Of a stretch of 29,139 nt of DNA, positions 13,283 through 29,139 are shown piece by piece. The DNA is from Candidatus Nanoarchaeia archaeon (GTDB lineage: Archaea > Nanobdellota > Nanobdellia > SCGC-AAA011-G17 > UBA489). Both the position numbers and the translations under genes were made by a program. Within the stretch, counting starts at the first letter, position 1. Each line of letters starts with the position of its first letter. Under the pieces are notes generated by a model, which saw only the letters and a program-made list of their open reading frames with translations, was not told where the DNA came from and did not search any database. The DNA is taken from contig DATDXZ010000063.1 in the NCBI GenBank assembly GCA_035289145.1, positions 1-29,139 of the forward strand, written 5' to 3'.

Positions 13283-13330
13283 TTACTCTCGCAGGTCGAG
13301 AATCGTCTGAGCTAAATAACCACTAAATTT
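13283..13330 (-). repeat. Degenerate second copy of the nac 3' end
   Basis: Translates KFSGYLAQTILDLRE* versus nac KSNGDLAEAILSLQQ (15262-15309): 7/15 aa and 27/45 nt identical by manual alignment. Confidence 0.65.
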
Positions 13331-13340
13331 TCTAGAAGTT

Positions 13341-14453
13341 TTATTCTGTTATTCTAATAAATTTCCCATTTTCTACAGTTTTAGGAACATATCCCTTGTC
13401 CGTAACCCGTCCCTTACTATCGAAAGAAATAGTATTTGAAATTCCATCATATTCTTTTATGGACGAAAGATACTGGGCTATTTCTTCAGGAGTAGTTTTA
13501 CCTTCTCTTAAGGCGCTGGCGATTAATTGTAATGCATCATACCCATAAGATGCAGGAGGTGATGCTTCTATGCTAAACTTTGCAGTATATTTTTTTCTAA
13601 ATTCTGCTTCTTGCTCATCTATTTGCGGATATCCGTAGATAGTTCCTTCAATTCCAGGAAATGCTTTTAAAAGCATAGGATTTTCTGTGCCTGATGGGGA
13701 ATATATTTGTAGGTTTAACTCAAATTCCTTAGCTTGTTTATTAAATGCTCCCTGGCTTGGATAGAATGCGAAGGGGGCAAAAATCGCATCACTATTTGTC
13801 TTCTTTATTTTGGTTATAATGGTTCTAAAATCGTCTTCATCTGGATCTGTGGGAAAACTCTCCCCAATAGAGATACCGTTTTTTCTAGCTTCTTCTAAAA
13901 AATTATTTTTGACTGACTCTGACCAATCATTTAAACTGTAAATAACTACTACTTTTTTTACATTATGTTCCTTCATATGTTTAATAATAGGCAGGACTTC
14001 TTGTTTTTCTGTCGGCCATAAACTAAAAAAATATTTGCTTGGTTCTAAAATAACTCCTCCTGATGGGGAGATCATTAAAACTTTTAACTGCTCTGCAAGA
14101 GGGCTAGCTGCTTGCGCAAACCATGTTGGACCAATAATCACTTGCAAATTATCTGTATTGACTAGCTTTTGAATTGCATTAACCGTCTTTACAAAATTTG
14201 TTTCTGAATCCTCTACGATTAAGACTAGTTTCTTTCCATTAATTCCTCCTTGACTATTAATTTCTTCAAGCGCTAGATTTGCACCATTTAATTCTCCAGT
14301 GCCCCAAAAAGCTCCTTCTCCAGAAAGATGAAAGACCCCACCTATAGAAATAGTTTCTTCTTCAACTTCATTTGATTTGTTGAGTGTTATGGCTATTATT
14401 ATTACTATTAGAACCGTGATTATTCCAATTCCTATTTTGTATATCTTTACCAT
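13341..14453 (-). CDS. LivJ/LivK-like ABC substrate-binding protein, membrane anchored
   Basis: N-terminal TM; IGGVFHLSG, INSQGGINGKKLVLIVED, IIGP, YGYDAL, YDGISNTISFD. Confidence 0.92.
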   Translation of the reverse strand: MVKIYKIGIGIITVLIVIIIAITLNKSNEVEEETISIGGVFHLSGEGAFWGTGELNGANLALEEINSQGGINGKKLVLIVEDSETNFVKTVNAIQKLVNTDNLQVIIGPTWFAQAASPLAEQLKVLMISPSGGVILEPSKYFFSLWPTEKQEVLPIIKHMKEHNVKKVVVIYSLNDWSESVKNNFLEEARKNGISIGESFPTDPDEDDFRTIITKIKKTNSDAIFAPFAFYPSQGAFNKQAKEFELNLQIYSPSGTENPMLLKAFPGIEGTIYGYPQIDEQEAEFRKKYTAKFSIEASPPASYGYDALQLIASALREGKTTPEEIAQYLSSIKEYDGISNTISFDSKGRVTDKGYVPKTVENGKFIRITE

Positions 14454-14495
14454 TTTCTTCTAATAAACGTCTACAGAAATGCTTATAAATTATTA

Positions 14496-14514
14496 TTCAA
14501 CAGTAACTATTGAA
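14496..14514. promoter_or_regulatory. Imperfect palindrome between TATA and trmB start (candidate operator)
   Basis: TTCAACAGTAACTATTGAA is 16/19 self-complementary; shared TTATAAAT at 14483-14490 can serve both divergent genes. Confidence 0.5.
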
Positions 14515-15278
14515 TGAAAGAAGCATTACAGAACCTCGGACTTACTGATGGTGAAATCTCTGTTTATCTCGCGTTGCTAAAATTAGGCACAGTCACTAAT
14601 AGCCCTATTGCGAAAGAATCTCAATTACAGAGCTCCACTGTCTACTATTGTCTCAACTCTTTGGTCAAAAAGGGCTTCGCAACCTATATTTTAAAGGGAA
14701 ATAGAAAACATTTTAGCGCAGTTGATCCTGAAGTGATCCCGGAAATATTAGATGAAAAACAAAAGCAATTAGATCTTCAAAAGAAGGAGATACAACATAT
14801 TGTTAAGACACTGCGTCAGTATAAACGCTCTTCGGAAGAACAAACAACTGCTGAAGTATTTGAAGGATTTAGAGGATTTCAAATGATCTTTAGAAGCATC
14901 CTTAAACAAAGTAAGAGAGGGGATTATTATGAAGCTTTTGCCTATGAACAAAAAACGACAGAGTCTCCAGCCATTAAATTATTATTCATGCAGCATAATC
15001 AAAAATTAAAAAGAAAAGGGGTAAAGTTACGACTAATTGCTTCTTTATCGATGAAAAACGCTTTATTAGATATTTATGGAAAGCAGTTCTTACAAAAATT
15101 TCAAGAGATTAGGTACACTCAAACTGTTATTCCTGTGGGCATTACTCTCTTTAAAGACACAGTGATTACCCATATTCCTGAAAATGAAAAAATTATTTCT
15201 ATAAAAGTAAAAAGTCATAAATTAGCGACCATGTATCGTGATTATTTTAATTTTGTTTGGAAATCTGCTGAAGACTAA
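14514..15278 (+). CDS. TrmB-family transcriptional regulator
   Basis: LQNLGLTDGEISVYLALLKLG...VYYCLNSLVKKG, AVDPE, EVFEGFRG. Confidence 0.9.
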   Translation: MKEALQNLGLTDGEISVYLALLKLGTVTNSPIAKESQLQSSTVYYCLNSLVKKGFATYILKGNRKHFSAVDPEVIPEILDEKQKQLDLQKKEIQHIVKTLRQYKRSSEEQTTAEVFEGFRGFQMIFRSILKQSKRGDYYEAFAYEQKTTESPAIKLLFMQHNQKLKRKGVKLRLIASLSMKNALLDIYGKQFLQKFQEIRYTQTVIPVGITLFKDTVITHIPENEKIISIKVKSHKLATMYRDYFNFVWKSAED

Positions 15279-15591
15279 GGATTGCTTCAGCTAGATCGCC
15301 ATTAGATTTTTCCAAAGCTGCGCGTGCTTTGTCTTTTGAGACTTTGGCTTGCTCTGCTACTGTATCTACATCTTCTTCTGAGAATTTCTGTGCTTCTACT
15401 TCTTCAATGGTACCACTAATTTGCAATGTTTCTTGACCCATAGCAATTACTTTTGATACTTGAGGATTACGAATTACTAAGTCTTTAGTTGGTGTTTTGA
15501 TAATAACTTCAGTTGCCTCTATTTCTTCTTGCTTAATTCCCATTTTTTTCATGGCTTCCTTTACCATTTTGGGATTCATGCCTGGAAACAT
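15247..15591 (-). CDS. nac: Archaeal nascent polypeptide-associated complex protein
   Basis: MNPKMVKEAMKKMGIKQEEI, NPQVSKV, ETLQISG, UBA-like EDVDTVAEQA...GDLAEAIL. Confidence 0.96.
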   Translation of the reverse strand: MFPGMNPKMVKEAMKKMGIKQEEIEATEVIIKTPTKDLVIRNPQVSKVIAMGQETLQISGTIEEVEAQKFSEEDVDTVAEQAKVSKDKARAALEKSNGDLAEAILSLQQISKQN

Positions 15592-15768
15592 CTTGTAGCA
15601 GCTTTCTTCTCCCTATAAAAATCTTTCTTGTTATCTTTCTCTTGCTAGTTTTTCTAAACTCATCATCTTCTGAAAAAATTATTTTCTTCTAAGCTTTTAT
15701 CACTGTGCTTTCCAACATTCTTCTACATTATACAAATCTTTTTATAGTTCGCATATACCTCTTTTTGC

Positions 15769-16056: not shown

Positions 16057-16100
16057 CTTCCCTCATAATCTTTAAATAGGTTCTTTTCACAAACTCTCTC

Positions 16101-17930
16101 ATGAGCTGGGGCGTTTATTCTTCTGACAAGGCACTGTTGCCTCCTTTAGTATACTCTAATAAAAAAACCCAGGAAAGCGTGGTTGATGAGATTGAGCAAG
16201 CGATTAAAGAAGGCCATAAGATTATCTTTGTGCATGGCAAATGTGGCAGCGGAAAAAGCCTGATCGGATTGGAATTGGCAAGACGACTAGGAAAAGCATC
16301 AGTTGTTGTTCCTGTGAAATATCTACAGAAGCAATATGAAGAAGATTACACTAATAAGATGTATCTGCAAAAAGACACTGGAGAAAAACTTAAGATTACA
16401 ATTTTAACAGGCAGAAATAATCATCAATGCCTCTATGATTCGCAACATACTGCTGATCATCATCTTCTGCCCTGCACTGTTGAGATCAAAAAAGAAAACT
16501 TACAACTTTTGGATAAATATCTAGAAGAAAATCCCATGGTAGATGTCGAGAACTTTAAAAATATTGACGATATCCGAAGAGTTTCTGTAGCAGCTGCCTG
16601 CCCTTTTTGGAGCCCTGTCATCAACAAAGACTGGTTTGGCAATGACTATGGATTGAAAGACGCACAACAAGTAGATTATGAGGGACTCAGGAACAGACAA
16701 TTCGCCTACTTCAGAAGAAAACCTGGCTGCACCTATTATGCGCAATTCATGAGCTATATCACCGCTGACGTGCTAGTTTTTAACAGCAAAAAATACGAAA
16801 TAGAAGTCACGATGGACAGAAAACCTGTCACTGCTGTTGAAATTATTGATGAATGCGATGAATTCTTGGATAACTTCAGCAACGAGAAGAGATTTAACCT
16901 AGACATTCTCTCTACAAAGCTTAATTCGCTTATTCAACAATGCAAGGACGAAGAGACCAAAGAAGCATTATTGGATATCAGCGATCAAGCTCAAAAATTC
17001 CTGAGGTCAACTACCTTTGACTCTTTTTTGCAACAAGAAAAAGTTTTTTCCTTCAAGAACTCACAGGCATGGGAACTTTTGAATACTCTACTGCAACATG
17101 ACAAGATCCTGGAATATGAGGAATTAGAGCCATATATCATGATTGCGAAATATTTTGAACACCTCCAAGAAGACACCTATTATACCTATTATCACGACAG
17201 AAAAAATTATAGAGGCATCTTACTGGTCAATGTGAATCTAGAAAAGAAGTTCAAAGAGTTCTTGGAGAAAAACAAAGTATTTGTGCTCATGAGCGGGACT
17301 CTGCATAGCAGAAAAGTTTTGGAAACAGTTTTTGGCATTACTGAGTTCAAGACTATCACGGCAGAAACTAAGGACATGGGCACAGCGAAGAAAACTTTTA
17401 CACGACTGGAGAGAAACTTTCGATACAAAGAATTTGAAGACGGCAGATTGACTAAAGAAGATTATTTGAAAGCCCTAGCAAAATGTTTAGAAGTAGCAGA
17501 AAAACCTGTTCTTGTGCATGTGAATAGCTATGCTGATCTCCCTAGCGAAGAGGAAAAACAACAGTACAACTTAACTTCTATCCAAAGCCGCGAGAAACTA
17601 GAAGAGCAACAGGAAAAATACAAACAAGGAGAATTACTGCAGATGTTTAAAGAGGGCAAAATACCTATTTTATATTCTACTCGCTGCTCACGAGGTGTAG
17701 ACTTTCCAGGAGACATGTGCAGAAGCATAGTCTTTACTAAATATCCTTATCCCAGCATGCATTCTTTATTTTGGAAAGTCTTGAAGCTCAGCAGACCTGA
17801 ACACTTTATGGACTTCTATTTTGATAAAGCACGAAGAGAATTTTTGCAACGCGTTTATAGAGGACTGCGTTTTCCAGAAGACAAAGTCACTCTCTTAAGT
17901 CCTGATATGAAAGTATTAGAAAGCTTCTGA
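16101..17930 (+). CDS. DinG/XPD(Rad3)-like SF2 helicase with Fe-S cysteines
   Basis: GKCGSGKS, GRNNHQC, LPC, ACPFW, GCTYY, IIDECD, MSGTL, RGVDFPGD, KYPYP, QRVYRGLR. Confidence 0.88.
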   Translation: MSWGVYSSDKALLPPLVYSNKKTQESVVDEIEQAIKEGHKIIFVHGKCGSGKSLIGLELARRLGKASVVVPVKYLQKQYEEDYTNKMYLQKDTGEKLKITILTGRNNHQCLYDSQHTADHHLLPCTVEIKKENLQLLDKYLEENPMVDVENFKNIDDIRRVSVAAACPFWSPVINKDWFGNDYGLKDAQQVDYEGLRNRQFAYFRRKPGCTYYAQFMSYITADVLVFNSKKYEIEVTMDRKPVTAVEIIDECDEFLDNFSNEKRFNLDILSTKLNSLIQQCKDEETKEALLDISDQAQKFLRSTTFDSFLQQEKVFSFKNSQAWELLNTLLQHDKILEYEELEPYIMIAKYFEHLQEDTYYTYYHDRKNYRGILLVNVNLEKKFKEFLEKNKVFVLMSGTLHSRKVLETVFGITEFKTITAETKDMGTAKKTFTRLERNFRYKEFEDGRLTKEDYLKALAKCLEVAEKPVLVHVNSYADLPSEEEKQQYNLTSIQSREKLEEQQEKYKQGELLQMFKEGKIPILYSTRCSRGVDFPGDMCRSIVFTKYPYPSMHSLFWKVLKLSRPEHFMDFYFDKARREFLQRVYRGLRFPEDKVTLLSPDMKVLESF

Positions 17931-17935
17931 TTTGT

Positions 17936-18139: not shown

Positions 18140-18382
18140 ATGTACTCAGATCTTGTTAGACTCCTTGTCTTTAATACAGATGGACAACTTATTACTCAAC
18201 ATCCAGTCTTTGTTAGCCAAGGATCTGAATTTAATAAGCCCAAGTTAAGCAGTGTTGTTGCACAAATGAGCATGGACTTTCCACTTGGAGTAGCAGTAGA
18301 CAGAATGTTAGAAACTGCATCTCGATATCAAAAAACTACTTCCTACGATACCCTGTTTAAAGACTATGCATGCGGGCAATAA
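18140..18382 (+). CDS. Hypothetical protein (80 aa)
   Basis: Start moved to ATG 18140 because the track's N-terminal extension is antisense to the Lrp fragment. Confidence 0.55.
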   Translation: MYSDLVRLLVFNTDGQLITQHPVFVSQGSEFNKPKLSSVVAQMSMDFPLGVAVDRMLETASRYQKTTSYDTLFKDYACGQ

Positions 18383-18404
18383 ATAATATCTAGAAAGCAT
18401 TTGA

Positions 18405-18560
18405 CTAAAATACATTGATGGCAATCGCGATAACTATAATTACTGCGATAATAACCATGACTGTCATTGGAGACATCTTTATGCGACTGCCTGTTTCTTC
18501 GCTGTAGCGCATTAATCCTCCACCAGATGATGGTAATGAAATTCTGTTGTCTTGTGCCAT
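18405..18560 (-). CDS. secG: Preprotein translocase subunit Sec61-beta (archaeal SecG), not in the ORF track
   Basis: MAQDNRISLPSSGGGLMRYSEETGSRIKMSPMTVMVIIAVIIVIAIAINVF*: GGLMRY and SP+TM signature. Confidence 0.95.
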   Translation of the reverse strand: MAQDNRISLPSSGGGLMRYSEETGSRIKMSPMTVMVIIAVIIVIAIAINVF

Positions 18561-18571
18561 TGTGAATAGGA

Positions 18572-18980
18572 TATGTAGGGAGCGTTAAGCCGCCTTTTGT
18601 CTGTTCCCGAAACAAAAACATATGGTTTCTGTACTTCCCTTACGAGAAGCCGGACGAACAATGTCTCATTCGACTAAGCGTTTCTTACGAAACTTACACC
18701 AACCCTGTCTTGCTGTTTCATCGTTTCCGATGCGCACTTGTTCCGTCGGTTATCTCTGCATCCTCGCGGACACATTCAAACTTCGATGTTTTTTACGAAG
18801 CCAAGGCTTTGCATCCTTGCGACATCATGACTACGCAGCGGCCGTGTCATTTCTGTGCATAGACCTTCAGTTTCCTGAACTGCTGGTTAAAGCAGTGGTC
18901 TCCTGTCGTATACATAAAGTATACCGGTGGGCGGACTTTCCTCAGTTCTTGCGAACCGATAGAGACTCGCTTCCTACCTA
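18572..18980 (-). ncRNA. rnpB: RNase P RNA
   Basis: P4 halves GAGGAAAGTCC (18933-18943) and AAAAGGCGGCTTA (18586-18598); P1 GTAGGAAGCG/CGCTCCCTAC; P2 GTCTC/GAGAC; P3 GGTTC-GCAA-GAACT; ACAGAAA and TGAAAC conserved segments. Confidence 0.95.
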
Positions 18981-19000
18981 GTTATTTAGTACTTGGACGC

Positions 19001-19117: not shown

Positions 19118-20293
19118 ATGGCTCAACGACGACTCACGTCTAAAGATGTTCTGGGACAACCTATTGAACATGTGGACATAACAGCGTTTGATTCTCGCCC
19201 TCTTATTGACCAATATAGACGAGCACGAGGCTCAGCTGGAGACATTGCAGCAGCAGCAGATACTTACAACAAAATGCTTACAGACCCTGGATGCACTATT
19301 ATTCTTACTCTAGCAGGAAGCTCGAGCGCTCAAGGTCTTATGCATGTTTGGCCAATTTTAGTCAGGAATAATATGGTTGATGCTGTCATAACGACTGGCG
19401 CCTCTGCTATTGATATGGATCTTTTTGAAGCGCTAGGATTTCGCCATTATAGAGGAACAGGAATACCAGTCAGCGATAATCAATTGGGAAAGTTAGGCAT
19501 TGACCGCATTTATGACACTTTTATACAAGAGGATGAGCTGCAGCAAGTGGATGCGTTTTGCAAGCGTTTCTTAGACTCTCTTCCATCAGGAACCTATGCT
19601 CCTTGGCAACTCTTGAGCAAGCTTGGTGAAAGACTCTCTGAGAAAGAGTCAGCCGCAAAAAAAGAAGGGTCACTTCTTCAAAGATGTTATGAACATAATG
19701 TTCCTCTCTTTTCCATAGGTCTTACAGACTCAGCATTCGGCATGGGATCTCCATATCATCAAATTGAAAGACATTTACAAGCTGGAGCACAAGATAGACT
19801 TCAAGTAACTGTAGACACAACTCCTGAATATACAGACCTAGCAAAAATAAAACTTGCTTCACCTGCAACTGGACTCTTTATGATAGGCGGCGGACTTCCT
19901 AAAAATCATGCTCAAGACACAGTCATTGTTGCGCAAGGAATTCTTGCAGAATTGAGGAAATCAAGGAGCAATTTTTCTCTTCTCGACCGCATGGGATATG
20001 GTCTGCATGGACATAAAGATGAGGTTCCTTTACATAAGTATGCTATTCAGATTACTGTCGCAGATCCGCGAGACGGCGCCTGCTCCAGCTCAACTCTAAG
20101 CGAGGCGCGCTCCTGGGGAAAAGTCAGCTTAGAGGATCAAGTCATGGTCTTCGGAGAAGCAACAGGCATAACTCCATTAATCCTCTCAGCAGTATATCAT
20201 GAGGGTCTATGGCGCGACAGAAGCCCACGCGAGCATCTAACTTCCTTGGATAGTCTGCGAGGACCTGCAGATTTCATCCCTCTCTCCCGCTAG
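19118..20293 (+). CDS. Deoxyhypusine-synthase family protein, bacterial SpeY-like subtype
   Basis: LTLAGSSS, VDAVITTGAS-IDMDLFEALGFRHY, IDRIYDT, IGGGLPKN, HKYAIQITVADPRDGACSSSTLSEARSWGKV (catalytic Lys in SWGK). Start by TATA spacing (track start 19097). Confidence 0.92.
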   Translation: MAQRRLTSKDVLGQPIEHVDITAFDSRPLIDQYRRARGSAGDIAAAADTYNKMLTDPGCTIILTLAGSSSAQGLMHVWPILVRNNMVDAVITTGASAIDMDLFEALGFRHYRGTGIPVSDNQLGKLGIDRIYDTFIQEDELQQVDAFCKRFLDSLPSGTYAPWQLLSKLGERLSEKESAAKKEGSLLQRCYEHNVPLFSIGLTDSAFGMGSPYHQIERHLQAGAQDRLQVTVDTTPEYTDLAKIKLASPATGLFMIGGGLPKNHAQDTVIVAQGILAELRKSRSNFSLLDRMGYGLHGHKDEVPLHKYAIQITVADPRDGACSSSTLSEARSWGKVSLEDQVMVFGEATGITPLILSAVYHEGLWRDRSPREHLTSLDSLRGPADFIPLSR

Positions 20294-20412
20294 ACTAGAT
20301 CTAGAAAATAACATTTTGATTTCTTTTTGTCCTTACACTAGAGTTAATTTTACCCACCATCTTTAAATATTTATTCAACCCTCTTATTTTATCAATTTAT
20401 GGAGGAGAGATT

Positions 20413-20811
20413 ATGAATGCATTTTTAGGAAAAATCTTATTGACTTTTTTTGTTTTTATGCTTGCCTTTTCTATTTTTGGACAAACAACAACGACTGCAA
20501 TACAGGACCCGATCCGCACACTTGTTCCACCTCAAGCACCCATGTGTGAGAAAAGTGACAAGGGTTATTGCCAGGCTGTTTGTAATGTAGCTAGAAACTC
20601 TGATGGGACATCAAATCCTGCAGGATGTGTAACTGCGTTTACGCCAATGCAGCCTCAAGGAATTTTGTGCCGCTTGGATCAAACCACTATCTTAATTGGT
20701 TGTGATATGCCCAGCGCAGATTCATGCGTGAGCTCAAGTGGTCAACAAGGTGTTTGGTGCAGCTGTTATTACAGATGCCAAGATCTTCCATCACCACGAC
20801 AAGGTGAATAA
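20413..20811 (+). CDS. Secreted cysteine-rich protein (10 Cys)
   Basis: SD GGAGGAG; signal peptide; 8-Cys core shared with the next gene. Confidence 0.85.
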   Translation: MNAFLGKILLTFFVFMLAFSIFGQTTTTAIQDPIRTLVPPQAPMCEKSDKGYCQAVCNVARNSDGTSNPAGCVTAFTPMQPQGILCRLDQTTILIGCDMPSADSCVSSSGQQGVWCSCYYRCQDLPSPRQGE

Positions 20812-20813
20812 CT

Positions 20814-21146: not shown

Positions 21147-21180
21147 CTTTTTTTCTTTTTTATTCCTTCTTTTTCATTTC
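21147..21180 (+). terminator. Oligo-T terminator-like tract after the Cys-rich pair
   Basis: Two long T runs (21148-21161) directly after TAA 21146. Confidence 0.45.
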
Positions 21181-23268
21181 TATAGAAATTGTTTGATCTC
21201 TTCCTTTAGTTATTTCTCTTCTGTCAGAGGGAGTATATCCTGGAGCCTGCACCACCACTCTTAAAGGAAAGAAAGGATCTTGCAATGGAAAATATAGTAT
21301 TCCTTGCTGATCAAAACCATTCCTTATAGTTACTCTTTTTGGTCCTTCAGTTTCAATAAATGTCGCGCTATATACTGGAACTGGTTGTCTGCTCGCAGCA
21401 TCTGCCACTTGTACTGTTAGATATTTACTTTCTCTTAACATAATTCTTTGCTGTCCTGCACTTGCATCTAGATATCCTCTCTGCTCTTCAAGAACTCCTT
21501 CTCTGCTTTCATTTTTCCACCACGCAAAATAGTTTACTGGTCCATTTGGCGCCACAACAGCAAAATTTCCTCGATCATCTGTTCTTGTATATGTTTCCCA
21601 AGTACTATCTCTTTTAGTCAATCTCAAGTTGACGTCTTTAGCAGCTTCTCCATTGTACTGCAATACTCTACCTTCTAAAGAAATACCTTCTTCGAGCATA
21701 ATCTGCACAGGATTATCAGTTGGAACATTTATCTCTTGTCTTGTTTGCATACTTCTTTCTGCGTCTCTTCCAGGGAATGCAGTGATCATATATCTTCCTG
21801 GCGCTATGTCTGGAACTATGAACGAACCATCCGGGGTTGTTTCTATACTATACCTTTGCCAAAAAGGCGCATTGGAGACATTGTTACTTCCCAGCAGATT
21901 CATTAATGAGATTTCTAATAATGATCGCGCTGGATTATTGTTTCTATCCACTACTCTTCCTTCTATTTTGTCGATTGTTTTTACTATCCTCAGAGTAATT
22001 TTATTCTGTGTATTTTCTTCCCCAATATTCTCAAGCACTATCGCTTCCAAAACTGGCTGCATATATCCTTTTTTTACAGCAACAGGAACATAGAATTGCA
22101 GCCCTGGCTCCCAGAGCGGAGGGCGATTTGGATCAATGCCTTTTATCTCAAACTCTCCTTTATTATTGGTCATTCCTGGAGCTAAGCCTCCAAAAGGAGA
22201 CAAACCTAAAGGTTCCAGAAGATAGACTTCAGCACCAGCGATATGTTTACTCTCTTGATCGATGACTTTTCCTCTCAATGCTGCTCCTTGTTTAAGCCAT
22301 ATTATTAATTTTTCTTCAGCGTCTAATTCTGCGCTATTTATTTCTTTTCTGATGTAACCTTCCGCATTCGCTTCAATGCTATATTTTGTTGGTGTCAGCC
22401 ATCCTTGCCATATGCCATTCTGATCTGTAGTTACTTTTTCAGCAAATATTTTTTGATCGATGTTGGGCAATGTTAATGTTACTACAGCTCCAGCAATTCC
22501 AGACTTTTCTCCTGTGTCTCTTGCTTGTATCTGACCAAATACTGCCTGTGGAGCACTGTATGTTCGCTCTACATCTTTGTCAAATACTGGAATCTGATCT
22601 TGAATAACTGCTCTGTTTATTGTTGCGATAAAAGCGTTGTAGATCGTTCCTTCTGGAACATCTTCGAACACTGCTTCATTCCCCTGCACTAATCCTTCCA
22701 GCGTTTTCTGGCCGGTCGTCTGTAGCACTGCTCTTCTAATATTGTCATTTACCTTTAATCTTACATCTGGACTATCGTTGAAAGCAATGAGAATATTGTC
22801 GCTTGGCGCATGCGTCACTTCTCTTCTTTTCTCTTTTCCATAAGGCGTAGTAAACCGCGCTTCAATATCATACGAAGTCAATGCAGGCACTCTTATTGAG
22901 AATCTACCTTGCTGATCTGTTTCTGTTCTCCAGGCTTTCTGCGTGTTTCCCACAATACTTGCTACTCTCGCTTCAATATCGACGTTGCTTAGCGGTTTTT
23001 GCTCTTGTATTACTTGTCCATTTAATATGAATCTCTCATATTTTTCTCTGAGATCTTCCTGTGCCTTTGGTTCTTCACTAACTCTTATCCTGGTTGTTCC
23101 ATTTTCTTCTTCTTGCTGGGCTTCTGTTGTTATTTGTTGCGTTCTTTGCGGATCACTCGATGGCTGATTTATATATGGAGGAGATTCTTCTCTAGTATGC
23201 ATCAGTGCAGCAGCTCCTAAAAGTGTCACACCTGCCAGAGATAGGATCCATTTGTTGGTATTACGCAT
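21160..23268 (-). CDS. Membrane-anchored surface protein with 6-7 carboxypeptidase-regulatory-like (Cna-B-type) repeats
   Basis: N-terminal TM; repeated [LI]xG[RK]V[VI]D...P...A.V....T.TD..G.F units (e.g. LRGKVIDQ..MTNNKGEFEI; IEGRVVDR..TTPDGSF; LEGRVLQ..TRTDDRGNF). Confidence 0.85.
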   Translation of the reverse strand: MRNTNKWILSLAGVTLLGAAALMHTREESPPYINQPSSDPQRTQQITTEAQQEEENGTTRIRVSEEPKAQEDLREKYERFILNGQVIQEQKPLSNVDIEARVASIVGNTQKAWRTETDQQGRFSIRVPALTSYDIEARFTTPYGKEKRREVTHAPSDNILIAFNDSPDVRLKVNDNIRRAVLQTTGQKTLEGLVQGNEAVFEDVPEGTIYNAFIATINRAVIQDQIPVFDKDVERTYSAPQAVFGQIQARDTGEKSGIAGAVVTLTLPNIDQKIFAEKVTTDQNGIWQGWLTPTKYSIEANAEGYIRKEINSAELDAEEKLIIWLKQGAALRGKVIDQESKHIAGAEVYLLEPLGLSPFGGLAPGMTNNKGEFEIKGIDPNRPPLWEPGLQFYVPVAVKKGYMQPVLEAIVLENIGEENTQNKITLRIVKTIDKIEGRVVDRNNNPARSLLEISLMNLLGSNNVSNAPFWQRYSIETTPDGSFIVPDIAPGRYMITAFPGRDAERSMQTRQEINVPTDNPVQIMLEEGISLEGRVLQYNGEAAKDVNLRLTKRDSTWETYTRTDDRGNFAVVAPNGPVNYFAWWKNESREGVLEEQRGYLDASAGQQRIMLRESKYLTVQVADAASRQPVPVYSATFIETEGPKRVTIRNGFDQQGILYFPLQDPFFPLRVVVQAPGYTPSDRREITKGRDQTISIEMKKKE

Positions 23269-23367
23269 TTATTTTTCTAAGCAGTTTCTCTTAATAAATG
23301 TTATTATTCAGTAATAGTATCAATAGCTCTCAAAAAGCTTTAAAGACTACCTGCTTCTCTTTCCTTC

Positions 23368-23727
23368 ATGCAAACTTTGTTTATTCTTCTCATTTTTATC
23401 TCCTTAGCTCTTTTTCTCTTCTATTTTTTCCGCTACCAGAAGCTTTACCAGCAATATCATAGTTTAGAGTTTACTTATCGCAGCTCGAATGTCAAACATG
23501 GACAACATTGGGAACAATTTGTGCCTTTCATGGAGGACTTTAACAAGGTAGCGCAACGGGAGAATTTTGTTTTCATTGGCATGCCTATTGATGGGATCAG
23601 CTTTGACGATGATGGGATTAAGTTTATAGAGATCAAGACTGGGAAAAGCCAGCTGAACCAGAAACAAAAACAAGTCAAAAAATTGATAGAAGGGAAACAA
23701 GTTGAGTGGATAGAACTGCGATTTTAA
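23368..23727 (+). CDS. Membrane-anchored Holliday-junction-resolvase-like PD-(D/E)xK nuclease (Endonuc_Holl-like)
   Basis: N-terminal TM; GQHWEQFVPF, FIGMPIDGISF, FIEIKTGKSQL. Confidence 0.88.
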   Translation: MQTLFILLIFISLALFLFYFFRYQKLYQQYHSLEFTYRSSNVKHGQHWEQFVPFMEDFNKVAQRENFVFIGMPIDGISFDDDGIKFIEIKTGKSQLNQKQKQVKKLIEGKQVEWIELRF

Positions 23728-23742
23728 GGCAAGGAACTTATT

Positions 23743-25044
23743 TTAAGCACTAATCAACCATTTCCATATAGGCGTTATATATATCTTTTTCTTATTTATA
23801 GTTCTTATTTCTTCTTGATCCTCTGTTAGTATTGTTCCTTCATTGAGCTTATAGGCATCAAGCGCCTCTAGTAAACCTCTTACTTCTCTTTCTTCATTTT
23901 CTTCACTGAGCTTTGCAGTTACTTGTATAACAGATTCTACTTTATTCTTTGCTACTATTATGAAATCACACTCATATTTTCCCCTATGATAATAGACTTG
24001 CTTGTTTTTTCTTCTTAGCTCTAAAAATACAGCATTTTCCAAAAGTTTTCCAGTATCTTCAGAGAATTTGAAGCTTATAGAGTTGAGCAACCCATTGTCT
24101 ATGCAGTATACTTTTTTTATAGAACCAATCTGCTTTGCTACCGCATATTCATATTTCATATTCTGGAAGAACAGATAAGCGTCTTCAAAATAGGCTATAT
24201 GCTCTATTATTGTGCTTTTGCTGGTCTTAAATCCAATGAACAGGAGTTTGTTTGCTAGTTTAGTATAAGACATTTCACTAGATACTGACTGAAATAACAA
24301 TTGCGCGAGAGATTTTAGTTTTTTTACATCTTCAATGTTATGTCTTTCTACTATATCTTTGAGGATCATAGAATCATAATATCCCTGTAGAATTGTTTCC
24401 TTGGGAATACTTTTATTTATTAGTATGGCAGGATATCCTCCATCTACCAGATATTTAGAAAATACTTTTTTTACAGCTATTTTTTCTTTGCTGTAAGCTA
24501 TTGTTTTTAGATTATAGGACACTTTATTCCATAGAAGCATTTCCTTAAAACTTAAAGGCATTATTTCCCTATTTATCATACGCCCTCTTAATTTGGTAGA
24601 TATTTCTCTGCTTAATAATTTTGAACTGGAACCAGTCACGATGAGTTGTATATCTTTTCTGGTATCATATATCTTCCTAACCCACGCATCCCAATTCTCG
24701 ACTGTCTGTATCTCATCTAAGAAAAAATACATCTTCTGCTTTTTGCTAATTTCAGACAACTCTAGAAAATATTCAAGAATCTTCTCTAAATCATCAGCAC
24801 TTGCACCAAGAAGCCTATTGTCTTCAAAATTGATATAGAACATATTTTCTCTAGGAACTCCCTGCCCCAGAAGTTTCTGCATAAGCTGGAAACAAAAATA
24901 AGTCTTTCCTGCTCTTCGAGGACCAGTAATGGTCACAATAAAGTCTATATTCAGGTCTATATCGTTCAATCTAGGCAAATGATCTGGAATTTGAAATTCC
25001 TTCCAATTAACAACTATTTGTTTATAGTACATGTTTTTTTCCAT
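23743..25044 (-). CDS. AAA_14 + DUF4143 ATP-binding protein
   Basis: GPRRAGKT, FFLDEIQ, TGSSSKLL, GGYP, KKVYCIDNG, ECDFII. Confidence 0.92.
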   Translation of the reverse strand: MEKNMYYKQIVVNWKEFQIPDHLPRLNDIDLNIDFIVTITGPRRAGKTYFCFQLMQKLLGQGVPRENMFYINFEDNRLLGASADDLEKILEYFLELSEISKKQKMYFFLDEIQTVENWDAWVRKIYDTRKDIQLIVTGSSSKLLSREISTKLRGRMINREIMPLSFKEMLLWNKVSYNLKTIAYSKEKIAVKKVFSKYLVDGGYPAILINKSIPKETILQGYYDSMILKDIVERHNIEDVKKLKSLAQLLFQSVSSEMSYTKLANKLLFIGFKTSKSTIIEHIAYFEDAYLFFQNMKYEYAVAKQIGSIKKVYCIDNGLLNSISFKFSEDTGKLLENAVFLELRRKNKQVYYHRGKYECDFIIVAKNKVESVIQVTAKLSEENEEREVRGLLEALDAYKLNEGTILTEDQEEIRTINKKKIYITPIWKWLISA

Positions 25045-25196
25045 CGAACAAATTGTATCATATTTGTATTATATAAAATACAATTCCTATATAAGCTTTT
25101 CTCTTTCTTCTTGCTGTTATTTTTTGACAGTTTCTAAATGACAATATCTCTCCTTGCTGACATCCTTTTAGTTGTCGAAGCTCAGATACTTAAAAT

Positions 25197-25274
25197 CAAC
25201 TGAATCAGAAACAAAAACAAGTGAAAGACCATGTCCAGAACAGAAATATTGAGTGGATTGAGCTTAGATTTTAA
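25197..25274 (+). repeat. Diverged second copy of the resolvase-like gene 3' end
   Basis: QLNQKQKQVKDHVQNRNIEWIELRF* versus QLNQKQKQVKKLIEGKQVEWIELRF* (23650-23727): 17/25 aa, 55/78 nt; in-frame TAA just upstream. Confidence 0.92.
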
Positions 25275-25318
25275 CAAAAAATAAAAACGCTTTTATATGA
25301 TAAGTGTTTTTTGCGTCT

Positions 25319-26152
25319 ATGGAAGACATAGCGACGTTTGTTGAACCCTCTACTCTGGAGTTTTTTACAAATCTACGAGCTACCAAGCTCATGTATATCA
25401 CCCAAAGAAAAACTGATAATGACATTTCAACAGAAGATCGTTACTTGCAGATTGAGGTCAACATCTTTGTCAGATCTGACATAGGTTATGATCGAGAACA
25501 ATTCCCTACAGAAATCAAAAAAATGCCTCATGGCTCATTACGCACTTTAAAAGAGCTTTTATCTCAAGGCATTGCCAAGAAACTTATTGACAAAGGCGAT
25601 AAAGTCTTGTGCGTAGTTGATGAAAGTTTAGGGATAGGCTACAAAGGCGTGAGCTTTGTCTTTGACATTGATCATGTCCTGGTAAATATCTCTCGTCATC
25701 GTCTTTCTGACAATATTCAACCAGAAATTCTTGAAGCTGTTATTGACATCGCAACAGAGATTGCTACTGAGGGACGAGAAGGCAAAAAGATTGGCACTGC
25801 TTTTATTATTGGCAACAAGGCTGATATCCTGAAGTATGTGAAACAGCTGGTTTTAAACCCTTTCTTAGGCCATATGGAAAGCAAAATCAAGATTTCTGAT
25901 CCCACTATACGTGAAACTGTCAAAGAGTTTGCTCAATTAGATGGAGTCTATATTCTTGATACTGACGGCAGCATTATCACTAGCTGTGCGTATTTAGACG
26001 TCCCGACCGATGGCATTGAACTTCCAGGACTGGGCACGAAGCACTTGAACTGCGCAGCCATTACCAAACATACTGACAGTGTAGCTGTTGTGGTCTCTTC
26101 TACGGGCACTATTCGTGTTTTCAAAGACGCCAAGATTGTTATGAAGATTTGA
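25319..26152 (+). CDS. Diadenylate cyclase (DisA_N/DAC domain), archaeal DacZ-like with N-terminal extension
   Basis: EGREGKKIGTAFIIG, KEFAQLDGVYI, GLGTKH, VVVSSTGTIRVF; start ATG 25319 by TATA spacing. Confidence 0.88.
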   Translation: MEDIATFVEPSTLEFFTNLRATKLMYITQRKTDNDISTEDRYLQIEVNIFVRSDIGYDREQFPTEIKKMPHGSLRTLKELLSQGIAKKLIDKGDKVLCVVDESLGIGYKGVSFVFDIDHVLVNISRHRLSDNIQPEILEAVIDIATEIATEGREGKKIGTAFIIGNKADILKYVKQLVLNPFLGHMESKIKISDPTIRETVKEFAQLDGVYILDTDGSIITSCAYLDVPTDGIELPGLGTKHLNCAAITKHTDSVAVVVSSTGTIRVFKDAKIVMKI

Positions 26153-26212: not shown

Positions 26213-27001
26213 ATGGGTAAAATAAAAAGATCTAGGGTAGAAAAATCAACTTCAGATAGTTATGCTCTTAGCTCTCAGCAGATTACTTTTTCACAATTAT
26301 ATACGAAGGCTAGAGAGGAAATTCCGCTTCATTTAGTAAATACAACTGCGTTAAACGCGGTTGCAACTCCTCCTTATGCGGCTCTTGAAGTTGGTCTTGC
26401 TAAAATGACTGATGATATCTCATTGGGGTCTAGATTAACTGCTGCTGGATTAGGTTACGCAGGAATTGCATGGCTTTACTCAAAAGGTAGAGACTTATCA
26501 AAAAGAGTTTTACAGATAACTGATAAATCTAAAGAACGCATACAAGCTGTTCACGATGCTATTTATACAGCAGCTTTTAACGGTGTAGCTTGTTTCCCCC
26601 TTTATTTATGGATGGGTGCTGATTCAAAACAGGCAGCTATTGGATCACTTATTGGTGCAGCAGTATCTGTACCTCTTGGACCAGTACTAGGGTACGCAGT
26701 AGATGCTGCAGGAGAGTTAACTGGCATTAGACCGAATCATAGGATATCTCATTCTTTTGACAGTCTTGCTGAAACGTTGGAAAATCGTAATAGATTAAAA
26801 CCTACGCTTCATTATTTAGCTAACAAATCAAGACGTGTTGGAGAATTTGTGTCAGAATTAAGACCTCGTTCTAAGAAAACCTTAGCTGCTTTATTGTTAA
26901 CAGGTTCAATTGCAGCTACTGCTGGAGTCTATGCTTTAACATCTGATGAAAGTGATACTTCAATTTCAACTCCGCAAACTATTGAGATTCAAAATAAGTA
27001 A
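26213..27001 (+). CDS. AlaE-like (L-alanine exporter family) membrane protein
   Basis: Pattern NTTAL...EVGLAKM...SLGSRL...Y..GRD and GPVLGYAVD recalls AlaE; from memory, not searched. Confidence 0.55.
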   Translation: MGKIKRSRVEKSTSDSYALSSQQITFSQLYTKAREEIPLHLVNTTALNAVATPPYAALEVGLAKMTDDISLGSRLTAAGLGYAGIAWLYSKGRDLSKRVLQITDKSKERIQAVHDAIYTAAFNGVACFPLYLWMGADSKQAAIGSLIGAAVSVPLGPVLGYAVDAAGELTGIRPNHRISHSFDSLAETLENRNRLKPTLHYLANKSRRVGEFVSELRPRSKKTLAALLLTGSIAATAGVYALTSDESDTSISTPQTIEIQNK

Positions 27002-27034
27002 TAACTATTCTATAAACTTCCTTAAGAGAAGACT

Positions 27035-27454
27035 ATGACAGAACACAAGAAAAAGAGCAAGTTTAGAAAAACTTTAACAGGTATCAAACGTGTAGCTTTA
27101 GCAGGACTTTTAGGATTAGTAACTGCATGCGGCAATGACACTGATCATGTTTGGATTGTACGACCGAACGCTGCAGAACGCTTTACTCTTACTAGATACG
27201 CAGGATCTGGCAGCGAACCTCGATCTCTCTTTCTTTTTGATTTAGAAGGCGATGGAAAGATAGACCAAGCAGTAGCGACTCGAGGAATAGAATGTTCAAA
27301 CATAGGTTATCTTCGAGGAATTCCTAAAGAACATGTAACATTTTATACTGCTCCGGGCACGCAACCAAGCGACTATGTTATCAGTGGCGTTGCACCTCAA
27401 CCTCTCACTGAAACCCTGGTTATGGAGTTTCTAAACTCTAGTCAAAACAAATAA
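27035..27454 (+). CDS. Lipoprotein of unknown function
   Basis: Basic N-region, hydrophobic core, lipobox LVTAC; DLEGDGKID Ca-loop-like motif. Confidence 0.75.
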   Translation: MTEHKKKSKFRKTLTGIKRVALAGLLGLVTACGNDTDHVWIVRPNAAERFTLTRYAGSGSEPRSLFLFDLEGDGKIDQAVATRGIECSNIGYLRGIPKEHVTFYTAPGTQPSDYVISGVAPQPLTETLVMEFLNSSQNK

Positions 27455-27550
27455 ATCAGGCTAACATTTTTTCTTTCTTTTTCTTCTTCTTTCATTCCTT
27501 ATTCTCCTGCAATAGCAATCTATAAAAATCATCTTTTTGACTTCTTTCTC

Positions 27551-27931
27551 ATGACTCAGAACTATAAACACACCATCTTGAATCTCAAAGCTAGAAAAGA
27601 AGACAGAATTCAAGCGGCGTTCCAATTAGAAAACAACGCTGATGACGCGGCGGTAGACGCCTTGGGAAAAGCGTTATTGACTGATCCCAGCCCTATAGTC
27701 AGACATGAATGCGCCTTTTCTCTGGGAGAAACTGGATATCCTGACAAAGCTAGTTCTTATCTCCTGCAGGCTATTCAGACAGACAAAAATATTTTTGTAG
27801 TGCATGAAGCGTTGCTTGCCTTAGCAACTTTAGGCGATGCAAAGTTTATTCCTTTTATTAAACAGTATCTCAAAGATCCACGACCAGAAATTGCAGAATC
27901 TGCGGAAATCGCGTTGGAACGTTTACAATAA
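27551..27931 (+). CDS. HEAT-repeat (PBS-lyase/DOHH-like) protein with two His-Glu motifs
   Basis: VRHECAFSLG (H52-E53), VVHEALLALA (H85-E86), GDAKFIPFIKQYLKDPRPEIAESAEIALERL. Confidence 0.85.
   Translation: MTQNYKHTILNLKARKEDRIQAAFQLENNADDAAVDALGKALLTDPSPIVRHECAFSLGETGYPDKASSYLLQAIQTDKNIFVVHEALLALATLGDAKFIPFIKQYLKDPRPEIAESAEIALERLQ
27845..27921 (+). repeat. 77-bp perfect direct repeat, copy 1 (inside the HEAT gene 3' end)
   Basis: tttattccttttattaaacag...cgcgttggaacg is identical base for base to 28976-29052. Confidence 0.97.
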
Positions 27932-27940
27932 GCTATTTTA

Positions 27941-28363
27941 TTACATTGATCTTGATTTTCCTGACATTCTTAACATGTCTATATTAGTGAATATTTTTAC
28001 TTTTTGTTGTTCTTTGAAATGAGGATCATGAGCCCATATGCCTTCTGCTTTACTAGCAAGACATGCAGCAAGATGCAGTGCATCATCTACATCACTTATG
28101 TCATTTTTACATTCCTCGATATAATCTTGATATTCCTCACGAGGCAGAATTTCTATATACTCAAAAATAAACACACGTAATATCTCAAATTCTTTTTCCG
28201 TTACTTTGATTCTCTTTAACAATTCGTCCTTATGCTCTTCTATTTCTATTAGTGTATAATCCGGTGTTATGAACTCGAAATATTCATCAAAGAGTATCTC
28301 TCTTGAAGTGCCATCTTTTACTAAGGCAGCTATAATCCTATTTGTATCTACGACAATTTTCAC
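27941..28363 (-). CDS. PIN-domain (VapC-like) toxin
   Basis: IVVDTNRIIAAL, DVDDALHLA, IWAHDPHF acidic PIN residues; GTGA overlap with the antitoxin. Confidence 0.9.
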   Translation of the reverse strand: MKIVVDTNRIIAALVKDGTSREILFDEYFEFITPDYTLIEIEEHKDELLKRIKVTEKEFEILRVFIFEYIEILPREEYQDYIEECKNDISDVDDALHLAACLASKAEGIWAHDPHFKEQQKVKIFTNIDMLRMSGKSRSM

Positions 28364-28587
28364 TTGACAAGACCGTGTCTTTTTGCCATTCCATGCTTTA
28401 TTTTATGACCTATTTCTTCTGCATCCTGCTCTGTTAATTCACTATCTGCCAACAGTTTGTCCATGAGCTCTAATTTTCTTGCTTTTTCCCACATCGCTTG
28501 CCTCGCTACTTCACTCCATTTAATCTCCTTATGCTTTTGTATGATATGCTGCAGATCTTCTGGCACTGCTAAGGTCATATTGGTCAT
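28360..28587 (-). CDS. Ribbon-helix-helix antitoxin
   Basis: MTNMTLAVPEDL...IKWSEVARQAM; 4-nt overlap upstream of the PIN gene. Confidence 0.85.
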   Translation of the reverse strand: MTNMTLAVPEDLQHIIQKHKEIKWSEVARQAMWEKARKLELMDKLLADSELTEQDAEEIGHKIKHGMAKRHGLVK

Positions 28588-28975
28588 TGTTCGCCACTCT
28601 CCACATAGTTATGTATATTATGTATTTTTACGTATTTAAATAGTTTATGGTTTTTTTGAGGTATTGTTGAGAAGTTTGCAAAAGTAGGTATCTTCAAAAT
28701 GTAATATGCTAGAAGGTCAGAATTTGATGGTTTTGAAAGGCTATTTCGCGAAAACATGACTTATTCAAAGTTCTCTGTTAATCATCAAAGATTACTTCTT
28801 AGAAATTCTACATAATCACATATTACTTTAGAACGACTTCACTCATATCTTACAGCAATCTATGCACCAAGCCATTGACTACGTTCTTGAGATCATCTCT
28901 ATGTGACAACCAATCCATCTTGTTCTTGGTATAACTGTAACTGCTTGCAGTCCTTGTTATACATGATATGTTAAT

Positions 28976-29052
28976 TTTATTCCTTTTATTAAACAGTATC
29001 TCAAAGATCCACGACCAGAAATTGCAGAATCTGCGGAAATCGCGTTGGAACG
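28976..29052 (+). repeat. 77-bp perfect direct repeat, copy 2 (displaced HEAT gene 3' end, stop at 29060-29062)
   Basis: Identical to 27845-27921, then CGA TTA GAC TAA versus CGT TTA CAA TAA. Confidence 0.97.
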
Positions 29053-29058
29053 ATTAGA

Positions 29059-29139
29059 CTAAGCTTTCATTTGTTTATACCCTTCAAAACCTGCGAGCAA
29101 TACTTTGTTCACGCCCACGAGCGCTCTATTCAAAACTCT
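29059..29139 (-). CDS. 3' end of a gene running off the window
   Basis: RVLNRALVGVNKVLLAGFEGYKQMKA*; its TAG overlaps the TAA of the displaced HEAT 3' end. Confidence 0.55.
   Translation of the reverse strand, partial: RVLNRALVGVNKVLLAGFEGYKQMKA

Follow-up and report, generated by a model that had tools for sequence, protein, structure and literature searches.

The window analysed here is the whole of one contig (29,139 nt) from a small groundwater archaeal genome. At three places within it, a resident gene is followed by accessory genes, referred to below as cargo, and then by a second, orphan copy of its own last codons, including the stop. The genes and repeats concerned are given below in order of position.

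13283-13330, minus strand: orphan nac tail (KFSGYLAQTILDLRE*)
13341-14453, minus strand: periplasmic-binding-protein gene (cargo 3; Pfam)
14514-15278, plus strand: TrmB-family regulator gene (cargo 3; Pfam)
15247-15591, minus strand: resident nac gene, 114 aa (Pfam NAC and UBA)
16101-17930, plus strand: helicase gene
18390-18404: 15-nt stretch claimed as a helicase orphan, outside the phenomenon
23368-23727, plus strand: Endonuc_Holl (resolvase-related) gene (Pfam 5e-14)
23650-23727, plus strand: proximal copy of the Endonuc_Holl tail
23743-25044, minus strand: AAA_14/DUF4143 ATPase gene (cargo 2; Pfam 1e-39 and 5e-19)
25192-25274, plus strand: orphan Endonuc_Holl tail (NQLNQKQKQVKDHVQNRNIEWIELRF*), a 78-83 nt repeat
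27551-27931, plus strand: HEAT-repeat gene, 126 aa (Pfam HEAT_2 1.6e-24)
27845-27931, plus strand: proximal repeat copy, the last 29 codons of the HEAT gene, ending RLQ*
27941-28363, minus strand: PIN_2 toxin gene (cargo 1; Pfam PIN_2 5e-19)
28360-28587, minus strand: 75-aa partner gene of PIN_2 (cargo 1)
28661-28776: 117-nt element within cargo 1
28822-28966, plus strand: older relic within cargo 1, 88% identical to G003:C30
28976-29065, plus strand: orphan HEAT tail ending RLD*, adjoining the native convergent gene
29059-29139, minus strand: native convergent neighbour gene, 3′ end only, truncated where the contig stops and reading ...RVLNRALVGVNKVLLAGFEGYKQMKA*

At the HEAT locus, the repeat covers 90 nt (27845-27934 versus 28976-29065). 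Positions 27845-27921 and 28976-29052 match exactly, reproducing the 77-bp identity reported in the first-pass annotation, and the following 13 nt agree at 10 positions. The two copies end differently, with RLQ* in the proximal copy and RLD* in the orphan, whose stop overlaps the stop of the convergent gene on the opposite strand. In G002, G003, and G004, the convergent neighbour comes directly after HEAT, making these empty sites; translation by eye suggests that the gene at 29059-29139 is homologous to this neighbour, which tblastn confirmed only after the relic on contig L153 and in L170. L153 has the same PIN cassette, again behind RLQ*, but RLT*, the native HEAT end in G002, closes its relic, and the left boundary of the relic differs from that in the window for the same gene and the same cassette. 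The right joint in the window is abrupt (28966/28976). In the older relic inside the cassette, the final codons of a HEAT tail like that of G003 are joined to ~40 codons of the convergent neighbour's 3′ end, frameshifted. A simple tandem duplication of the HEAT/neighbour junction was ruled out because this inner neighbour fragment is a G003-like allele, unlike the real neighbour. The 117-nt element, which had no Rfam match at the gathering threshold, has further copies on contig C46, behind a tRNA-Phe gene (91%), and in G003 (96%), and a minor contig variant among the Logan contigs lacks 28664-28776.

The case first described as a resolvase-like gene followed by an AAA_14 gene is real, as the last 26 codons of Endonuc_Holl are repeated in frame up to a stop at 25274, with 17/26 residues and ~56/81 nt identical. 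Its right joint is abrupt at 25192, the relic ends 30 nt short of the DAC gene, and the junction between Endonuc_Holl and the ATPase recurs at 83% nucleotide identity in G015:C68. Both tail alleles are found in intact genes of relatives. The middle part of the relic is the allele of the intact Endonuc_Holl genes in G003, G004, and G015:C68, and the tail of G002 corresponds in one part to the proximal copy (97% over ~60 nt) and in the other to the last 25 nt of the relic (25/25). Few sites in the last 25 nt are informative for this mosaic, and donor and recipient can be assigned in two ways; placing the crossover in the tail at TTGAGTGGAT is one of two readings.

The third cargo, at nac, spans 13341-15278. 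Resident nac is 5 codons longer than nac in G001 and G002 and overlaps trmB. The earlier count of 27/45 identical nucleotides between relic and resident gene was obtained again, and the match to the resident tail alone is not significant (tblastn E > 1; stop-anchored score 21); when the longer resident tail served as anchor for an ungapped 45-nt scan, the best value in the region was 24/45, the null mean being 23. On this comparison the case would be rejected; the relatives' intact tails, which match the relic, reverse that verdict. We regard the relic as real despite its weak match to the resident gene because it aligns stop to stop with the intact nac tail of the congener G002, 36/48 nt being identical (blastn E 3e-4). 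In both cassette-free congeners, G001 and G002, nac ends ...AILDLQQ*, as the relic does, and is followed by other genes. The block at 13328-15594, comprising resident nac and the cargo, is anomalously similar to G003 and G004 (88-93% identical), and the relic is a different allele from resident nac, which arrived with this block.

Three good cases and one weak one had been proposed in the first-pass annotation; HEAT, Endonuc_Holl, and nac hold, and the fourth does not. The supposed orphan of the helicase gene, placed behind an Lrp fragment and an ORF, matches at 12/15 nt, a level equalled in 4% of random 1.2-kb stretches, and was discarded as chance. An RNase P RNA gene lies within the supposed cassette (18574-18978, minus strand).

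Strain variants chained one behind another in a metagenome-assembled genome could mimic such an arrangement, and the window gives this some purchase, as it is a whole contig that stops 74 nt after the HEAT relic and is covered at 13.3-15.6 kb by a more abundant related strain. We nevertheless consider an assembly artefact highly improbable. An independent assembly crosses both Endonuc_Holl junctions (Logan contigs over 19408-25942, 0 differences) and the left HEAT junction (27051-28698, no differences); the architecture recurs in many MAGs of different projects, including on contigs of 260-300 kb, and L153 presents it on an 89-kb contig. The right junction of the HEAT relic is the least well checked because the contig ends so soon beyond it. 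Neither an excised circle nor an empty allele from the same species turned up among the Logan contigs, but the assembler's word size is below the 77-nt HEAT repeat, which makes these contigs uninformative on empty-site or circle joints.

The same architecture was sought genome-wide by scanning stop-anchored gene tails at a score cut-off of at least 40 and comparing downstream with upstream positions and the same with the opposite strand. Nine matches lay downstream on the same strand, five of which are true orphans (two each on C63 and C36, one on C78), compared to four upstream matches (one an orphan) and 1 and 0 on the opposite strands. The downstream same-strand orphan tails score 66-135 and are nearly absent from the control positions. 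Scan matches on C30, C57, C42, C45, and C41 were set aside as tandem paralogues or internal repeats. Orphan gene heads were rare, and further instances of the architecture lie at a gene's 5′ end and in intergenic DNA.

The C78 case, with a repeat of 49-60 nt, separates the origins of the two copies. Its empty sites in G004 and G001 hold a single repeat copy with a TAG stop followed by the native TATA region. All orphans end in the same TAG and native TATA region, and all proximal copies in cassette-bearing genomes end in TAA followed by ACTTTTCG, which is cassette sequence. The G003 orphan and the G004 empty allele differ at 1/37 nt. By the comparison with relatives that had been suggested for it, the empty sites at C78 and nac, together with L153, support the earlier proposal that the recipient's former 3′ end survives as the orphan, the new one having come with incoming DNA. 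For a tRNA-synthetase case in G016, no DNA match was obtained for a same-genus empty site.

These tail ends bear on whether both copies could be the recipient's own. In a strict long target duplication, staggered breaks in the recipient would be filled in, and allelic differences between the copies would come from later homologous exchange with relatives. Such a class is known for bacterial restriction-modification units, whose variable repeats often lie over stop or start codons (PMC2853133), and the 77 identical nucleotides at HEAT and the existence of head and intergenic repeats would suit it. Against it, the proximal tail ends go with the cassette (TAA and the last codons at C78; RLQ* in two lineages) and the relic ends with the lineage, the nac relic differs in allele from the block-imported resident gene, and another lineage is the source of the older relic within the HEAT cassette. 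In six pairs, proximal and orphan copies differ at 23, 14, and 50 sites of codon positions 1, 2, and 3, respectively, a third-position bias indicating that the copies diverged as working alleles in separate genomes; duplication in situ followed by drift is rejected only moderately by this measure (p of about 0.03 by hand arithmetic, with one copy under selection). Strict duplication is therefore, in our judgement, an unlikely account.

The PIN cassette of the HEAT locus allows the comparison to be extended beyond this genome. Homologous pairs of PIN_2 and partner are present in different contexts in other genera and phyla, and of 50 loci from several DPANN phyla, 10-12 have direct repeats of 21-195 nt on either side of a homologous PIN cassette. 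At eight of these, a long neighbouring gene overlaps the repeat with its 3′ end; L030, L052, and L074 lack such a gene end, and L051 is doubtful, the repeat there being probably non-coding. Target genes vary, both orientations occur, and the ends of the cassette are not conserved. At L044, the joint lies inside the toxin gene, and the relic provides the toxin gene's own last codons. The suggestion of a general DPANN route finds partial support in the wide spread of one toxin-antitoxin cassette family, but the closed relative G025 has one weak case only.

Integrative elements that enter the 3′ ends of tRNA and protein genes have integrase-less derivatives, such as CIMEs and satellites in additive genomic islands. 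The loci described here could be decayed or satellite elements of this kind, with the repeats as attL and attR and a tyrosine recombinase acting in trans on protein-gene 3′ ends. The geometry is exactly that of attL and attR with a replacement 3′ end, direct repeats flank the inserts as they flank such elements, and the nested relics at HEAT look like accretion, just as relics pile up at the hot spots of such elements. Pfam scans found no integrase or transposase in 10.6-29.1 kb or among the cargo genes of the inserted units, and profile scans found no integrase inside the repeat-bounded PIN cassettes. The term "integrase-free" from the first-pass annotation is therefore apt for the window and its cassettes but not for the genome, which encodes three tyrosine recombinases (PF00589), only on contigs C9, C73, and C82, that could act in trans. 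Integrative elements depend on a recombinase of the tyrosine or serine type and on a fixed att core, whereas no recombinase lies in or near the cassettes described here, and the repeats of 12 PIN loci and five cases from this genome share no visible att core and differ in sequence, length, and boundary. One cassette family entering many genes with unconserved ends, the shifted relic boundary between the window and L153, and the L044 relic likewise argue against site-specific integration, which we hold to be quite unlikely. The motif CCTCCTGCAT, present in four PIN loci, was considered as an att core and rejected; in our own reading it looks like target-gene coding sequence, and two of the targets are apparently related. 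Integron cassettes differ in having attC imperfect palindromes and intI, while the repeats here are neighbours' coding tails, coding-conserved in relatives, and no integron-integrase-like gene is present in the window.

The loci are probably the footprints of recombinase-independent, homology-anchored insertion. The transitions from gene to tail are seamless and in frame, and the right joints are novel and without extended homology. Donor DNA from a related lineage would already carry the cassette beside the orthologous gene; on one side, it would recombine with the resident gene through gene homology, and on the other, an illegitimate joint would form a few dozen bases short of the resident stop codon. 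The resulting order would be resident gene body, donor tail and stop, cargo, displaced resident tail, and native downstream junction, the displaced tail being an untranslated relic. Campbell integration of a small circle carrying tail and cargo, ends-in recombination, or break repair on a cassette-bearing template, from which tail and cargo would be copied before the ends are rejoined by microhomology, would be topologically equal. Host recombination and end joining would provide the enzymology, and the physical form of the incoming DNA, like the direction of each transfer, is something we infer. In compact genomes, the survivors would be only those joints that leave every gene intact, which would account for the relics being gene ends of varying length that touch the next gene or its promoter. 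The mostly addictive or defence-like cargo (PIN toxin-antitoxin pairs, AAA_14/DUF4143 ATPases) may favour retention. A more speculative possibility, which we put forward tentatively, is that these are self-propagating, recombinase-free mobile cassettes of small-genome archaea that use a neighbour's last codons as a portable homology arm and are moved by host recombination. Such cassettes would pop out between the repeats or be copied during break repair, and the displaced gene ends would stay behind as dated relics; if true, this would supply the missing mechanism of insertion with long target duplication.

Nobusato et al. reportedly described insertion with long target duplication in 2000 in Gene (259:99). 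Small selfish units without mobility genes are flanked in that class by direct repeats of 46-423 bp that are single-copy in empty sites and often lie over a stop or start codon, leaving the neighbour gene intact; the screen for it yielded no case from archaea (Furuta et al. 2010, PMC2853133). The loci described here resemble this class in their direct repeats of more than 30 bp (HEAT 90, Endonuc_Holl 78-83, and C78 49-60 nt), in the single repeat at empty sites of related genomes (C78; HEAT in G002, G003, and G004), and in the lack of a transposase or integrase within the unit. They differ in that the proximal end travels with the cassette and the copies are alleles, whereas both copies have been taken as the target's, and in that the cargo comprises toxin-antitoxin pairs, AAA_14/DUF4143 ATPases, and others in place of bacterial restriction-modification units. 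For orphan 3′ regions at Rhs, CDI, and T6SS effector-immunity loci, homology-facilitated illegitimate recombination has been given as the origin (Kirchberger et al. 2017, PMC5361080, and work cited there). There too, a module is anchored by upstream homology, the old 3′ part is displaced downstream, and serial events stack relics; what is displaced, however, is a working toxin tip and the matching immunity gene, kept by selection, whereas here it is 10-30 codons of an ordinary gene with no function of their own and the incoming unit is a tail with an unrelated cassette. Homology-facilitated illegitimate recombination itself was described in transformable bacteria (de Vries and Wackernagel 2002; Prudhomme et al. 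2002; both as cited in PMC5361080). It shares with our loci, as far as that citing account goes, a one-sided homologous anchor and an illegitimate joint, and, as in Campbell integration, donor markers lie proximally and recipient markers distally (TAA versus TAG at C78; HEAT; the nac block). By the same account, it is experimentally documented only in bacteria and usually deletes recipient DNA, while here the recipient tail is kept as a duplicate because the joint lies upstream of the end of the homology. A literature search of limited depth found no report of the process in archaea.

DPANN archaea have tiny, compact genomes with few recognisable mobile elements, and accessory genes differ strongly between close relatives. 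The relics would provide a readable footprint of how accessory genes enter such genomes without breaking core genes, of which side is donor and which recipient, and of the order of events. They would also offer a mechanistic clue to insertion with long target duplication, which has been without a mechanism since 2000, in that the "duplication" here is partly donor DNA. The identity of the repeat pairs spans 100% to ~60%, and the relics may thus be usable as metagenome markers to count and date transfers.

The HEAT gene of the window (27551-27931) has a terminal stretch of 90 nt (27845-27934) that is repeated at 28976-29065, with a PIN_2 toxin gene and a 75-aa partner gene lying between the two tail copies. 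The first 77 nt of the repeat are identical, followed by a match of 10/13 nt, and the copies end in RLQ-stop in the proximal copy, the working tail of the resident gene, and in RLD-stop in the relic beyond the cassette. In the congener genomes G002, G003, and G004, a convergent gene directly follows HEAT (empty sites), and by our own reading, the 3′ end of the same convergent gene probably also follows the relic in the window. On metagenome contig L153, whose HEAT protein is 83% identical, HEAT ending in RLQ-stop is followed by the PIN pair, a relic ending in RLT-stop, and the same convergent neighbor gene, and RLT-stop is the native HEAT end in G002. The RLQ end common to the window and L153, together with the differing relics, indicates that this end travels with the PIN cassette and that each lineage retains its own old end. 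The left boundary of the relic differs between L153 and the window, and relics are nested at this site, with a G003-like HEAT end and a neighbor-gene fragment at 28822-28966. Between the two HEAT-linked cassettes (L153:2881-3540 and window 27941-28587), the partner (antitoxin) proteins are 86% identical and the PIN toxins only 56%, suggesting that the PIN pair is itself mosaic.

A relic pair surrounding a 418-nt cassette on contig C78 of the source genome allowed the native and incoming copies to be compared with empty sites. These sites, in G004 and G001, have a single tail with a TAG end followed by the native TATA region. The cassette is present in the source genome, G003, and G002, where all proximal copies end in TAA followed by ACTTTTCG; the orphans of the source genome and G003 carry TAG and the native region, the G002 orphan having been lost, and the G003 orphan differs from the empty allele of G004 at 1/37 nt. 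The proposal of the first-pass annotation that the orphan is the old 3′ end of the recipient, the new end being incoming, is supported by these empty sites, by HEAT in L153 and G002, and by nac in the congeners. Across six repeat pairs, differences at codon positions 1, 2, and 3 number 23, 14, and 50, and most changed codons are synonymous. By hand arithmetic, the chi-square is ~ 24 against equal shares and ~ 7 (p ~ 0.03) against a model with one copy drifting and the other selected, indicating that the copies diverged for the most part while each was a functional gene end in a different genome.

The last 26 codons of the Endonuc_Holl gene (23368-23727), which had been described as resolvase-like, recur in frame with a stop at 25274 and 17/26 residues identical, and this relic ends 30 nt ahead of the DAC gene. 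The two tail copies enclose an AAA_14/DUF4143 ATPase gene. Two tail alleles exist in the genus: KKLIEGKQ, in the proximal copy of the window and in G002, and KDHVQ(N/K)(R/K)N, carried by the relic as well as by intact genes in G003, in G004, and on contig C68 of G015, where the same ATPase gene immediately follows Endonuc_Holl. Over its final 25 nt the relic is identical to G002, and the last codons of the proximal copy resemble G003 and G015. The tails thus read as a reciprocal mosaic, as would be expected from a single crossover, with few informative sites and two donor/recipient assignments that fit. The slot between Endonuc_Holl and DAC (23727-25304) is a hot spot whose cargo differs in each of the window, G002, G003, and G004: AAA_14 in the window and, among the congeners, a 156-aa ORF, a lipoprotein-like gene, and a nucleotidyltransferase-like plus HEPN-like pair, the pair being named by reading ORFs. 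In G004, Endonuc_Holl has lost its stop (TAT), and reading continues into the next ORF.

The nac relic (13283-13330, minus strand) matches the resident nac tail at 27/45 nt, reproducing the earlier count, a match that is not significant alone; the match to the G002 nac tail is 36/48 nt, with the two stops in register. G001 and G002 are without the TrmB and binding-protein genes after nac, and their nac ends in GDLAQAILDLQQ before the stop. At 13328-15594, the resident nac forms a block with the TrmB and binding-protein genes whose identity to G003 and G004 is 88-93%, and the nac genes of G001, G002, and G015 are 71-82% identical to the resident one. These values suggest that the block was recently exchanged between species; the entire nac gene would have arrived with the cargo, with just the tail of the old gene remaining. 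Genes outside the block are 73-89% identical to G003 and G004, and public runs contain a more abundant strain with the block at ~ 92% and different flanks on both sides.

HEAT, Endonuc_Holl, and nac thus stand among the four tail-relic cases originally claimed; the helicase case falls, as its 12/15 nt match is found by chance in 4% of random stretches and the supposed cassette is filled by RNase P RNA. The archaeal RNase P RNA gene (18574-18978, minus strand; Rfam RF00373, 93.5 bits) overlaps the mechanically listed ORFs 18622-18981 and 18364-18621.

The source is a metagenome-assembled genome (896 kb, 103 contigs, 83% complete, 38% G+C) of which the window is one entire contig (C63), and the window sequence is present in public groundwater and soil metagenome runs. 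Its RNase P RNA of archaeal type, its NAC and TrmB genes, and the names of the genomes holding the most similar PIN cassettes (Woesearchaeota and other DPANN) agree with a DPANN-type archaeon. Both 19408-25942 (0 differences) and 27051-28698 (1 gap) are covered by Logan contigs from other runs; none was listed with an empty-site or circle joint, but a repeat of 77 nt, as at HEAT, lies beyond the resolution of such contigs.

A stop-anchored scan compared the last 30 residues of 949 ORF-based genes to all stop-terminated frames within 5 kb. At scores of at least 40, it returned 9 matches downstream on the same strand, five of them true orphans (two each on C63 and C36 and one on C78; scores 40-135), 4 matches upstream with one orphan, and 1 and 0 matches on the opposite strands; a tblastn version gave the same picture. 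With upstream and opposite-strand positions as controls, the genome-wide comparison came out in favor of the claim (5 downstream orphans versus 1 upstream). Orphan heads were seldom seen: one lies ahead of a ThiF gene on C93, a mirror image at the 5′ end. A nucleotide repeat scan of the same genome yielded additional repeat-flanked cassettes, listed here with two further AAA_14/DUF4143 cases (C45 and C36):

Cassettes elsewhere in the source genome
C93, 2208-3110: MazE-type antitoxin and PIN_3 pair, between a ThiF-family gene and an orphan copy of its first 17 codons; repeat 52 nt, 94% identical
C82, 375-1953: AAA_14 gene, bracketed by 96-nt repeats, 97% identical
C45, 15700-18817: AAA_14/DUF4143 in tandem with a PIN pair
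C36, 4679-5135: AAA_14/DUF4143 fragment enclosed by a gene and the relic of that gene
C70 and C102: AbrB-like and RelE-like genes, repeat-flanked, named by eye from sequence

Given the downstream same-strand excess and these further cassettes, the phenomenon is real and is not strictly bound to 3′ ends. Most of the cargo consists of toxin-antitoxin pairs and AAA_14-type ATPases, and the AAA_14/DUF4143 family seems to be carried often.

The PIN pair has homologues in other genera, where the surrounding contexts are unrelated; by genome name, the closest are in Woesearchaeota and other DPANN. In the genome G016, the pair lies behind a probable aminoacyl-tRNA synthetase gene (identified by eye) whose last 14 codons are repeated after the pair (39/44 nt). 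Direct repeats of 21-195 nt, 89-100% identical, flank the pair in 12/50 reference-genome loci, drawn from Woese-, Aenigmat-, Micr-, and Nanoarchaeota. At 8 of the 12, one repeat overlaps the 3′ end of a long neighboring ORF, upstream or convergent; L030, L052, and L074 have no such gene end at the repeat, and L051 is probably non-coding. Target genes vary, cassette ends are unconserved, and at L044 the last codons of the toxin itself come from the relic. Flanking repeats were found at the cassette in 10/45 loci versus 0-4 of ~ 40 at shifted control positions. In the closed genome of a same-order relative (G025, 737 kb), there is a single weak orphan tail, indicating that the process is patchy, not universal. 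The idea of a general DPANN route accordingly holds in part, for repeats at PIN loci in several phyla, but not for this relative.

A mechanism would have to leave one seamless in-frame joint inside homology and one abrupt joint, with the proximal copy marked as donor DNA and the relic as recipient DNA. It would also have to fit variable boundaries and repeat lengths, many targets, a unit without a recombinase, and the nested HEAT relics. Three tyrosine recombinases are encoded on other contigs of the source genome, outside the window, making site-specific recombination in trans possible; it is disfavored because the repeats share no common core and the same gene with the same cassette shows different boundaries. 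No integrase was found within the repeat-bounded PIN cassettes. We infer homology-facilitated illegitimate recombination or a topological equivalent, namely Campbell integration of a circle, ends-in recombination, or break repair copying tail and cargo followed by microhomology rejoining. Selection in compact genomes is proposed as the reason that only joints just within the now redundant gene end would survive.

Among described classes, insertion with long target duplication comes nearest; it is known for restriction-modification units in bacteria, with variable repeats of 46-423 bp often across stop or start codons, without mobility genes and by an unknown mechanism; no archaeal case was recovered (PMC2853133; PMC3874152). 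That class assumes both copies to come from the recipient, whereas in the present cases they do not both do so. A second relative is found in Rhs, CDI, and T6SS loci, whose displaced 3′ regions are ascribed to homology-facilitated illegitimate recombination (PMC5361080). New here are the archaeal hosts, the toxin-antitoxin pair and ATPase cargo, the ordinary genes as anchors, and sequence evidence pointing to donor DNA as the source of the incoming tail.

Two further features were observed around HEAT. HEAT and the DAC gene are direct neighbors in G002, so the window's two intervening ORFs (26213-27454), encoding a 262-aa membrane protein and a 139-aa lipoprotein-like protein, count as variable cargo too; of these, only the first is present in G004. 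A 117-nt non-coding element, 91-96% conserved, occurs inside the PIN cassette of the window (28661-28776), 60 nt after a tRNA-Phe gene (C46 of the source genome, 248-364), and behind a gene stop in G003 (C111, 5265-5380); in one run, a minor variant of the contig lacks it. The element terminates in a 25-nt motif, AAAACAGACTTATTCAAAGTTCTCT, which is found ahead of genes on contigs C85 and C100 as well and so is perhaps a promoter.
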